Shown here: one piece after another, positions 1 through 3,000 of the stretch
How positions within the stretch are numbered: position 1 is the stretch's first letter
How the letters are laid out: each line of letters starts with the position of its first letter
Origin: a virus
Lineage: Duplodnaviria > Heunggongvirae > Uroviricota > Caudoviricetes
IMG/VR virus record: IMGVR_UViG_2690316205_000005
DNA: 11,536 nucleotides
Direction: 5' to 3' (one strand)
Position numbers: made by a program

Positions 1-3000
1 CCTCAAAAACACCATCATACACTAAATCAGTAAGTTGGCAGCATCACCAGCCTTCTTGAGGCTACCACCTGTTTTCAGGTGTCATTCAGACGTGATTTGC
101 CCCAGATTGGGAAAGCACGCTTTTTTCTCAGCTATCGTCCTCTTATTTTGCCGTTACATTTCTTTTTGCATTCTAATGATTAATTTACAATAATAATATC
201 GGTAATTATTGAGTAATAATAAATTAATTATTGCAAATGTAATTTAATTCCATCTTCGCGTTATATTCCAATCTTTAATCTCCGCATGGAACAAGTTGCA
301 TGCGTGACTATATTAAGACGACTTATAACCACCAAAACATTTGCTTTGCAAGCAAAAACAGTGACCATTGACTCTAAGAAAATTCCGATCTATTGTTAGG
401 GTCATCAAAGTTACTTAACAGTATTCCGAAATGAAAATACAAAGCAAGCTAATTGTCTTATTAAACATTATTATTGCATTTATATTATTTGAGCTTTTAG
501 CTCAAAAATTTGGTTTGAGTACATTATTTTAAAGCAAGATAAACAATATCGGGCACTCTAGTTTTTATAATTAACAATTAAACGTCCATAAAATGTTATT
601 TACTTTTCTTCGCTATTGTCATATCTTAATATAGTGGCTTACGCCACTCTACTTTCATCACATTTTGTACGTTTATGTACTCGCCATGAAGCTCTTTCAT
701 GGCGATTTTTTATTCTTAATCCAAGAACATACTCCCTACCTATAGCAAAATCACTTTTTTAACAAAAGAATAACGTATTTAGGTAATCATTACGAATTTA
801 CCCTATAGGTGCTACTGGCCATTCAATATCCGGTGCAGTTGATGTATCAACACGGTTCAGCAACACCCGATACTTTTTCCAAGCTTCCAGCAACAAGGTT
901 TCTTTCTCCGTTGCGATCTCCAGATCCACAGCATCCTGAAGCGGCGCTATATGCTCACTGGCTACCTGCATCAGGCTGTTTTTTGTTTCTTCCGCCTCCC
1001 GGATCCGGAACAGTTTTTCTGCTTCCGTATCCTTCACCCAGGCTGTGCCGTTCCACTTCTGAAACTCCCCTTCCGGGGATAACCAGGTGACATTTTCCGG
1101 TAATGAGCCGAGTTCAGAAATAAATAACGCGTCGCCGGAAGCCACGTCATAAACCGTTTTACCCCGATGATCTTCAACGAGATGCCACGATGACTCATCA
1201 CTGTTGAAAACAGCCACGAAACCAGCCGGAATATCTGGCGGTGCAATATCGGTACTGTTTGCAGGCAGACCTGTATGAGGCGGAATATATGCGTCACCTT
1301 CACCAATAAATTCATTAGTTCCGGCCAGCAGGTTATAAATTTTTATGGTCCGTGCTTGTTCACTCATTCTGAATGCCATTATGCGAGCCTCACAATATAG
1401 TTAAATGCGATGTTTTTGACGGTGTTTTCCGCGTTACCAGCAGCGTTAACGGTGATGGTGTGTCCATGTGAACCAATCGCAACAGAGTGCGTATGAGCAC
1501 CAATACCGACAGTATGCGCGTGTGCACCCGCAGATGCTGCTGTGCCGGACAGTGAGTGTGTATGGTTTCCTTCTGAAGATGATTTACCTACCCATTGGGA
1601 GGTGCCACTGGTTAATGAGCCACTGATACCAACCTGATTAGTCCCGCTAACTTGAGTACTCCCTGCCGGAAACATTCCAGTAGGTTGACTCCCGCTATTC
1701 GTTCTGGGCCCAGTCTGACTATGTTGGTGGGCCCCAGCTGAACTTGTAGAGCCGCTCAGACTGTGCGTATGCGCCCCGGTGTTATTCGTGGATTTAGTGC
1801 CGTAATCAAACGACGATGTGGTTTTCGTCCCCAAATCCGTACTGGATGCGCTGGCGCTGTGGGTGTGCGATTTAATGCCATCCTGTTCCTGAGACAATAC
1901 GGCACGACCACTGGCGGGCTTGCCCTTAATCGTCCAGCCACGCATATCAGGGATCACGCCTGACGGATAAGCGGCTGCAAGTTTCGGGTAAGCAGATTTG
2001 TCAAAAGTCTGCCCCTGCATCAGGGCATAACCAGACGGAACGGTATCTGATGGCCACGGGATTGGTGCACCGACTGGATAAAACTCTGCAGGAGGATGAG
2101 CCGAGGTGTAAAGCTGCGCCCACGGCGACCAGTTTGCGTCGGTCGTATCCCGTCGTGAACGAATAAATGCCGGAGCATGAGCACCGCTTGTACCACTCCA
2201 GCCGATGAGTAACTCACCTTCGCCAACGGCTGTCATCCCTTTCAGGTGAATGATATTTCCATACGCTGTTGGATATCCGTTGTTATACACCTCGTATAAC
2301 TCAAGACCTGCTGCCCCCTGCGTATTGTCTGTCAGCGCGGCTACCCGACCTTTTGAAGCCAGATTAACTGATGATACTGCTGTTCCACCTGACGGTAGCG
2401 CCCCGATCTCTGATGCCGTTGGCTTATTTCTGGAGTTATAGTCCCTTCGCCAGCCAGGTGAATAATCTGTTCCGTGATTAATATAGGTAAACTGGGCGTT
2501 GGTTGTTCCGCCACCGCTGGATGTGGTCGGAGTGGTAATGCGGATCGTCATCGCTGACTTTATCCCCATTACTTCAATGACAGCTCCGGCGAGATGAATA
2601 TTACCGCAGCCAGTATCAGTAATGATTTTATTATTGCCATAAGACCAGGAACCCTTGCACATCCAGTATGGATGGTTAAATGCTCCCTGAGAATCCAGCC
2701 ACTCGATAAACTGTGCAGTCGTCCAGTTTCCTGTTGTTGTGCTTACTGACCCACCGAAGGCACGGCAGGCACCAATATTTTTCGTAAAGGTGTCTTTGCC
2801 AGGGATATCCGCACCGTTCTGATCTTTCTGCAGACGTTTCTCAGCATTGTCATTGGCTGCTTTTACTGCCTTTGGCGTTGCCGCCAGCGTTTCAGACGTG
2901 CTGTTGGTCGCGCTGCTTAGCTGGATTATCCCTTTCTGTGCTGTCGTTGCATCCTGTGCGGTGTATTTCCCGTTAGCCAGGTCATACGCGGCCTTAACGG

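Follow-up and report, generated by a model that had tools for sequence, protein, structure and literature searches.

Phage morons are genes that have a promoter and a terminator of their own and lie between conserved phage genes, as do lom and bor of lambda and gp15 of HK97. Here we describe a candidate unit of this kind, built around a 33-codon open reading frame (ORF) for a YncL-like predicted membrane peptide. It was found in a DNA stretch of 11,536 nucleotides (hereafter, the window) from the Caudoviricetes record IMGVR_UViG_2690316205_000005 of IMG/VR, within AT-rich DNA adjoining the tail fibre assembly gene tfa.

The closest described protein, YncL, belongs to the small membrane proteins; heat shock induces it, and so does minimal medium. 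In vivo, it serves as a substrate for the RseP protease (PMC10470546), and its overproduction depolarises the membrane, condenses the nucleoid, switches on the phage-shock response and lowers viability (PMC12542507). The yncL gene of Salmonella gives a short sigma-S-dependent transcript which was first catalogued as the small RNA (sRNA) STnc1110 (PMC5437024), and by analogy its architecture appears to be the same as that of the small gene described here. Prophages are also known to carry AraC-like regulators, including AppY, PatE and PsrB, and such regulators as AppY are under the control of H-NS (PMC10057817).

With moderate confidence, we read the tract downstream of tfa as the start of a mosaic equivalent of the lambda b region that contains a module borne by the tail-fibre cassette, with a YncL-like peptide gene in a moron-like unit. 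The features on which this reading is based are listed in Table 1.

Table 1. Features of the tract downstream of tfa (window coordinates).
Feature	Position	Strand	Basis or remark
IS1 terminal inverted repeat	1–48		96–100% identity to the annotated 'terminal IR of IS1' of phage P1 and other records
Lineage-specific remnant of a longer AT-rich spacer	49–219		phage matches start at 49
Conserved module following the tail-fibre and tfa genes, whatever lies beyond	220–797		several lambdoid prophages
Conserved non-coding block upstream of the promoter-like site	245–330		83–93% identity to the L008 type
Sigma-70-like promoter, TTGACT-17-TATTGT	368–396	+	in silico; predicted start near 403
33-codon ORF encoding MKIQSKLIVLLNIIIAFILFELLAQKFGLSTLF, YncL-like predicted single-pass membrane peptide; unannotated	431–532	+	sequence comparison
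Hairpin 1, AGTGGC-TTAC-GCCACT	633–648	+	read from the sequence and predicted by folding
Ultra-conserved, mostly single-stranded linker between the hairpins; candidate RNA-level element	649–680	+	column variability
Intrinsic terminator, 10-bp stem TCGCCATGAA/TTCATGGCGA and T-run	681–711	+	strongest plus-strand terminator-like site
tfa, tail fibre assembly gene, last gene of the late operon	798–1379	−	in relatives labelled as tail fiber assembly protein; convergent with the small gene

A conserved open reading frame downstream of tfa

The ORF was intact in all 57 loci compared, with the same start, stop and length. Its most divergent version (L008 type) differs at 18 nucleotides, distributed over the three codon positions as 7, 1 and 10, with a ratio of non-synonymous to synonymous substitution rates (dN/dS) of 0.09; only six differences, with a dN/dS of 0.04, separate it from the L007-type version. 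When 18 random substitutions were simulated, the frame stayed open in 11% of cases, and five or fewer amino-acid changes were obtained in none of 20,000 simulations. Variability was also counted by column over 34 distinct module sequences: 25% of the columns vary in the ORF vs 41–43% in the neighbouring spacers. No indels were found across positions 368–532, while the flanks contain several. Altogether, these data show strong purifying selection at the protein level, and the ORF is therefore a real protein-coding gene.

Other short frames were lost in the same comparisons. The ORFs at 286–399 (plus strand; labelled 'hypothetical' in phage PhiR70_1), 261–368 (minus strand) and 300–371 (plus strand) lose their frame through a 1-nt insertion in the Qin-site lineage and through indels in L008, those at 616–762 and 665–745 (both plus strand) through 1-nt deletions in L005 and L007, and the ORF at 626–700 (minus strand) was rejected since it shows non-synonymous changes only. 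A hairpin at 488–506, inside the 33-codon ORF, is disrupted in L008 and was therefore considered as coding sequence only.

No family was found for the 33-aa peptide in Pfam, PHROGs or PADLOC. When 1.84 billion representative proteins were scanned, the only matches were the peptide itself and a single frameshifted variant, neither of which is named. With tblastn, a phage collection gave no match, although the ORF is present in the DNA of three of its members; masking by the low-complexity filter may be the cause. Nothing on this locus was revealed by searching the literature for the peptide, for the sequences of the hairpins or for the names of the phages.

Relationship to YncL

The window peptide matched the NCBIfam model NF000537 (YncL) with a score of 25.0 bits (E 1.3e-5), and the L008-type variant with 23.5 bits (E 3.7e-5); YncL was the sole NCBIfam match for both diverged variants. 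A BLASTP comparison with YncL of Escherichia coli K-12 (b4598, MNVSSRTVVLINFFAAVGLFTLISMRFGWFI) produced an ungapped alignment starting from Met1 and covering residues 1–28 (28 aa), with 39% identity and 64% positives (E 2e-7). The residues common to both peptides are S5, [RK]6, V9-L10, N12, A16, L19-F20, L22 and [RK]26-F27-G28. None of the ten shuffled or reversed control sequences, five of which keep each segment (N-terminal, helix, C-terminal) at its original composition, matched YncL.

The peptide also agrees with YncL in overall layout, that is, in length, helix and position of the motifs: it has 33 residues vs 31 in YncL, a basic residue at position 6, Asn12 within the helix and the C-terminal [RK]-F-G, and its gene is likewise predicted to be located on a short monocistronic transcript. 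Differences between the two are also clear. The core-genome yncL gene lies between patD and ortT, whereas the small gene occurs in prophages beside tfa; yncL is preceded by the Shine–Dalgarno sequence AAGGTGG, which the small gene lacks; and the prophage peptide has two extra C-terminal residues. Judging from these comparisons, the peptide is YncL-like, probably a distant paralogue rather than an equivalog.

Structure of the predicted transcription unit

The promoter-like site upstream of the ORF has the form TTGACT-17-TAT(T/C)GT in the lineages, with 6 of its 29 columns variable and no indels. The terminator is likewise predicted at the homologous position in all lineages, and no T-run follows it on the minus strand. 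Taken singly, each of these signals is no better than expected by chance in AT-rich DNA, so that the evidence for them comes from their conserved position across the lineages: apart from the promoter-like site and the terminator, no signal of either type occupies a homologous position in all four. An earlier reading of the window from sequence only had taken a plus-strand terminator as the sign of a transcription unit that converges on the late operon, and the hairpin at 681–705 followed by T6 agrees with this proposal.

Positions 368–711 could thus be described, on the basis of these predictions, as a self-contained, moron-like unit that is convergent with the late operon, its promoter-like site and terminator defining about 310 nt. 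Its predicted order would be the promoter, a 28-nt leader, the 33-codon ORF, a 3' untranslated region (UTR) of about 180 nt containing hairpin and linker, and the terminator. Since this candidate unit lies wholly inside the window and it is IS1 that is cut at position 1, the suggestion that no more than the right edge of a system is visible in the window did not hold.

Several features known for phage morons are present. The predicted promoter and terminator surround the ORF, the unit is an AT-rich insert beside tail genes (GC content of 30% vs 55%), it is present in some and absent from other related phages, it is not co-oriented with the late operon, and its predicted product is a small membrane protein. 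The module was absent, for example, from the prophage DLP12 of K-12. Unlike morons, however, the unit would have a much smaller product (33 aa), is tied to the tail-fibre cassette in several prophage types and has an unusually conserved 3' untranslated part; its expression in lysogens is inferred.

The conserved 3' block

The 3' part of the unit consists of two hairpins separated by a linker. The existence of two tandem hairpins had been noticed in the sequence-only reading, and the second of them, at 681–705 and followed by T6, was placed correctly, while the first is located at 633–648 and not at 642–657. The stem of hairpin 1 is kept in all lineages, with one change producing a G-U pair and another one falling in the loop. 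Among the 34 distinct module sequences, only 2 of the 32 columns of the linker vary, which is the lowest density in the module, and the linker is 97% identical to a lineage that is only 78.6% identical overall. The 77-nt segment 636–712 folds far better than shuffled sequences (z = −5.5). Because a terminator alone does not need such conservation of a linker, it is plausible that the 3' block has a function at the RNA level, for example as a 3' UTR-derived sRNA or a control element.

One could therefore ask whether the main product of the locus is a regulatory RNA, namely an sRNA of about 75 nt (633–711) acting by base pairing, so that the whole would be a dual-function coding sRNA. Such a molecule could be a processing product of the small mRNA's 3' UTR or be transcribed from a weak internal promoter. 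The linker, which is less variable than the ORF, the predicted fold consisting of a 5' hairpin, a single-stranded stretch and a terminator, a weak motif TTTACT-17-TATCTT upstream (599–627) and the history of Salmonella yncL, first catalogued as an sRNA, are all consistent with this possibility. A terminator with a U-tail after a conserved single-stranded region, as expected for an sRNA, is indeed present, but the U-tail is interrupted by C (TTTCTTATT) in three lineages. Moreover, Rfam revealed no significant match in the tract, the best ones (MicC, E 1.4; Esr41, E 6.9) being at chance level, the internal promoter matches at no more than 8 of 12 positions and is weaker still in L008, and no base-pair covariation was found in the 3' stems because they hardly vary. 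The identity of the linker could also reflect recombination, since a crossover has occurred inside the block in locus L009. We consider this explanation unlikely, although it is the best-surviving of the alternatives.

The recombinant sequence in question (L009, 6001–6544) resembles L007 up to about window position 690 and L008 from there on, so that the crossover falls in the most conserved 3' block of the module.

Possible function of the peptide

The proposed mechanism can be outlined as follows. The peptide would be made in lysogens from the moron-like unit and, as a single helix, would insert into the inner membrane. If it behaved like YncL, it could lower the membrane potential and move the cell towards a stress-tolerant, low-metabolism state. 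The benefit could fall to the lysogen itself or consist in making it harder for superinfecting phages to bring in their DNA. In lytic growth, late transcription, being anti-terminated, would read antisense through the unit and shut it off.

Several observations weigh against a YncL-like peptide gene as the principal function of the locus. The YncL scores are below the curated 35-bit (equivalog) cut-off of the family, and no DNA similarity to the yncL locus of K-12 was found. Because of this sub-cut-off score of the hidden Markov model and the missing similarity at the locus level, convergence of short hydrophobic peptides is still conceivable as the source of the resemblance. No Shine–Dalgarno sequence precedes the ATG in any lineage, which weakens the coding interpretation, and only three diverged lineages were available, giving the comparisons modest power. 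The promoter-like site matches at 9 of 12 positions, a level expected by chance in AT-rich DNA. Finally, the most conserved part of the module (649–680) is non-coding, so the peptide may not be the only or the main product. Nevertheless, the moron-like unit with a YncL-like peptide gene is the interpretation that we favour, and all four alternatives, the regulatory RNA discussed above and the three considered below, are ranked below it.

A peptide of about 30 aa with a basic N-terminus and one helix is also reminiscent of type I toxins, and the locus could be a type I toxin-antitoxin or abortive-infection module in which a depolarising toxin is checked by a dedicated antisense RNA or by late read-through. 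The predicted gene resembles TisB, ShoB, Ibs and ZorO, as well as the coding sRNA STnc1110/yncL of Salmonella, in its short hydrophobic peptide, the sRNA-sized predicted transcript and the structured, conserved 3' end. Its relative YncL depolarises membranes and lowers viability when overproduced, the absent Shine–Dalgarno sequence and convergent late transcription would keep expression low, and a minus-strand promoter-like site at 622–593 would yield an RNA antisense to the ORF. However, this site is absent from the homologous position in L007 and L008, which led us to reject it, and a minus-strand terminator is predicted in no lineage; thus, in contrast to type I toxins, no cognate antisense or divergent sRNA gene was found. 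Likewise, no leader-complementary repeat was identified, and the best long-range pairing, of 294–318 with 624–648, was rejected as it is lost in L007 and L008. There was no match in PADLOC or to toxin families in Pfam and NCBIfam, and YncL itself does not count among the toxins of toxin-antitoxin pairs. A toxin-antitoxin function therefore appears improbable.

A more speculative version, which we regard as rather doubtful, would combine several of these elements in a dual-function locus: a depolarising YncL-like peptide would be encoded together with a 3' end (633–711) serving as a trans-acting sRNA or as the control of a toxin-like switch, and lysogens would gain phage exclusion or stress tolerance.

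Distribution and mosaic structure of the module

Of 5426 complete E. coli genomes, 831 (about 15%) contain the module (220–797), 823 of them at near full length, with 78–100% identity and always on the chromosome. Two scans of GTDB species representative genomes gave no matches, and no RefSeq annotation lies under the module in any of the rows listed. Scans of IMG/VR with degenerate motifs at the codon level and at the level of the YncL family revealed no further loci and no further phage lineage.

Relative to the L008 type, the most divergent one (78.6% identity overall), the conserved blocks are located at 223–330, 370–530 and 625–725, with DNA between them that is rich in indels and poorly conserved. 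The second and third of these contain the ORF and the 3' block, respectively. In the conserved non-coding block at 245–330, no conserved ORF, promoter or terminator was found, and only a weak structure is predicted (z −1.8 to −2.2).

Comparison of the flanks over the 57 loci revealed four classes on the left and three on the right, occurring in varying combinations. The module is found in prophages at the lambda attachment (att) site, at the ydfJ (Qin) site, where the host gene comes almost immediately after it, and at the icd site beside sitABCD. In these contexts the module moves with the side-tail-fibre cassette and not with any particular cargo; the tract is a mosaic rather than one cargo block cut by the edge of the window. 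The assumption of the sequence-only reading that the site downstream of tfa carries cargo was correct in general, as evidenced by an AraC-type regulator here and sitABCD in relatives.

A second 3' fragment of tfa is present to the left of the module in L005 (about 6850–7000), a ydfJ-site prophage, and in L008 (5892–5991), one of the icd-site prophages, so that in both loci the module is bracketed by tfa ends. This fragment is a scar of cassette replacement. In the same two loci the tail fibre has an S74 peptidase domain, and the adjoining tfa is only a remnant.

The tract could then be mainly a conserved junction, providing homology for the exchange of tail-fibre cassettes among lambdoid phages, with the ORF being incidental. 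The module does join at least three types of tail-fibre ends to at least four types of left flanks, and the second tfa fragment in L005 and L008 and the crossover in the 3' block of L009 would be natural consequences of such exchanges. However, recombination does not account for the excess of third-position changes, the dN/dS of 0.04–0.09 or the indel-free interval 368–532. As a complete explanation, a junction with an incidental ORF has little probability in our view, but the junction and the gene can both be true.

IS1 insertion and phage origin of the tract

The first nucleotides of the window match the terminal inverted repeat of IS1 (positions 1–48/56, 96–100% identity), so the description of the whole of 1–797 as AT-rich tract DNA is valid for 49–797 and not for 1–48. 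In locus L004, a complete IS1 transposase gene is located directly to the left and is contiguous with the terminal repeat. The same junction (48/49) occurs in 15 of the 25 loci of the lambda-att type. Many contigs begin inside IS1, and therefore the start of the window is probably an assembly break within this element. The phage DNA on the two sides of the IS1 of L004 (at 7282 and 8048) is non-contiguous, about 550 bp being absent relative to mEp332, and no target-site duplication was found around the element. These two features therefore indicate that IS1 was accompanied by an IS1-mediated adjacent deletion of about 550 bp. An ORF at 35–193 (plus strand), whose start lies inside IS1, was rejected as an artefact of the junction.

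Beyond the junction, positions 49–797 are 98.5–99.2% identical to the temperate phages mEp332, PhiR70_1 and ev099, all of whose matches begin at position 49, and also match lambda-like prophages located beside ybhB and bio, at the lambda attachment site. Because it is found in these three phages, the tract is phage DNA and not host chromosome, as the sequence-only reading had supposed in calling it accessory; from its matches, it appears to be the equivalent of the lambda b region in a prophage at the lambda att site.

In phages free of IS1 the spacer extends for about 750 bp further and reaches a gene of a YdeO/GadX-like AraC-family regulator. The order in these phages is tfa, an AT-rich intergenic stretch of 1.5 kb, the regulator, encoded on the same strand, then remnants of IS2 and finally the int-xis end. 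The regulator, which is located outside the window, is a protein of 247 aa (WP_000246058.1) encoded on the minus strand at 1001–1744 in L001 (mEp332) and at 6331–7074 in L004; it matches YdeO best and GadX next, both under the equivalog cut-offs. It may be another prophage regulator of the acid-resistance type, like AppY, PatE and PsrB. Its position after tfa resembles that of appY after tfaX in DLP12, whereas it differs from these cases in lying outside the window and in that the small-gene module is also found without any such regulator. That the tract is a long H-NS-silenced upstream regulatory region of this YdeO/GadX-like gene, which is close to the sequence-only reading, is very improbable: the 1.5-kb AT-rich stretch between tfa and the same-strand regulator in IS1-free phages and the H-NS control of AppY-type prophage regulators (PMC10057817) would fit, but here IS1 and the deletion of about 550 bp separate 49–797 from the regulator, 220–797 occurs without an AraC gene at the ydfJ and icd sites, and no DNA similarity to the tfaX–appY spacer of DLP12 was found.

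Some further observations concern the spacer. Window positions 49–133 (85 bp) correspond, with 96.5% identity, to L006 3998–4083, which lies where Rac-site prophages end in strains of the O26/O111 type, and that copy adjoins a 168-bp ORF labelled 'capsid protein' and three genes for NleG (DUF1076) effectors. In ev099 and mEp332 the same segment is part of a 55-codon ORF, which IS1 interrupts in the window. In mEp332 (L001), 69 nt at 2320–2388 are identical to the serU locus of K-12, comprising 60 nt of the 3' part of tRNA-Ser(CGA) and 9 nt of flank; they are deleted in the window lineage. This stretch represents a relic of the attachment site for an element integrating at serU, located in the b region of a lambda-att-site phage.

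Composition of the tract and other observations

The GC content is 31.5% in 49–797 and 30.1% in 220–797, vs 48.5% in tfa, 55.4% in the side-tail-fibre gene stf and 54.9% over 798–11536, and the change is located within about 100 nt of the tfa stop (798). The sharp compositional boundary noticed at this stop was thus confirmed. No ORFs of 60 aa or more overlapping 1–797 were found, in agreement with the initial description of the tract, and the longest open stretch in any frame of 49–797 has 58 codons. The abundance of TAATTA-like runs was evident as well: TAATTA occurs three times in the first 800 nt, compared with 0.09 per kb over the remainder of the window. For the window as a whole, the H-NS motif was matched at chance level (21 vs 22 expected), with 7 of the 21 matches within the first 600 nt.

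Elsewhere in the window, a run of 67 N is located at 6475–6541 inside the tail-tip gene J, which appears as two ORFs (5114–6388 and 6445–8766). The apparent split is due to this run, and a frameshift in J was rejected; the window comes from scaffolded or masked draft sequence. The Rfam family RF02111 ('IS009') matches positions 838–1036 on the minus strand with 218 bits. Since this match is wholly within the tfa coding sequence, the family, described as an sRNA gene, appears to model a conserved segment of the tail-fibre assembly gene and not a separate RNA.

Biological significance

While the YncL family itself is known, an unannotated prophage-borne gene for a YncL-like small membrane protein, as predicted here, would be new. 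Annotation routinely misses small membrane proteins, and this gene is unannotated in about one-seventh of complete E. coli genomes, including many clinical, Shiga toxin-producing (STEC), enterotoxigenic (ETEC) and avian pathogenic (APEC) isolates, and in sequenced temperate phages as well. The 'empty' AT-rich DNA following tail-fibre genes can therefore contain complete genes below the usual ORF cut-offs.

The finding links a core stress-response peptide family, YncL, to the accessory DNA of prophages and offers a tractable case for the role of such a peptide in a lysogen, be it the tuning of membrane potential, stress tolerance or phage exclusion. The adjoining non-coding stretch, more conserved than the ORF, is a candidate prophage sRNA. 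If the dual-function version were true, the locus would amount to a coding sRNA carried by prophages, which about 15% of complete E. coli genomes would contain without annotation.

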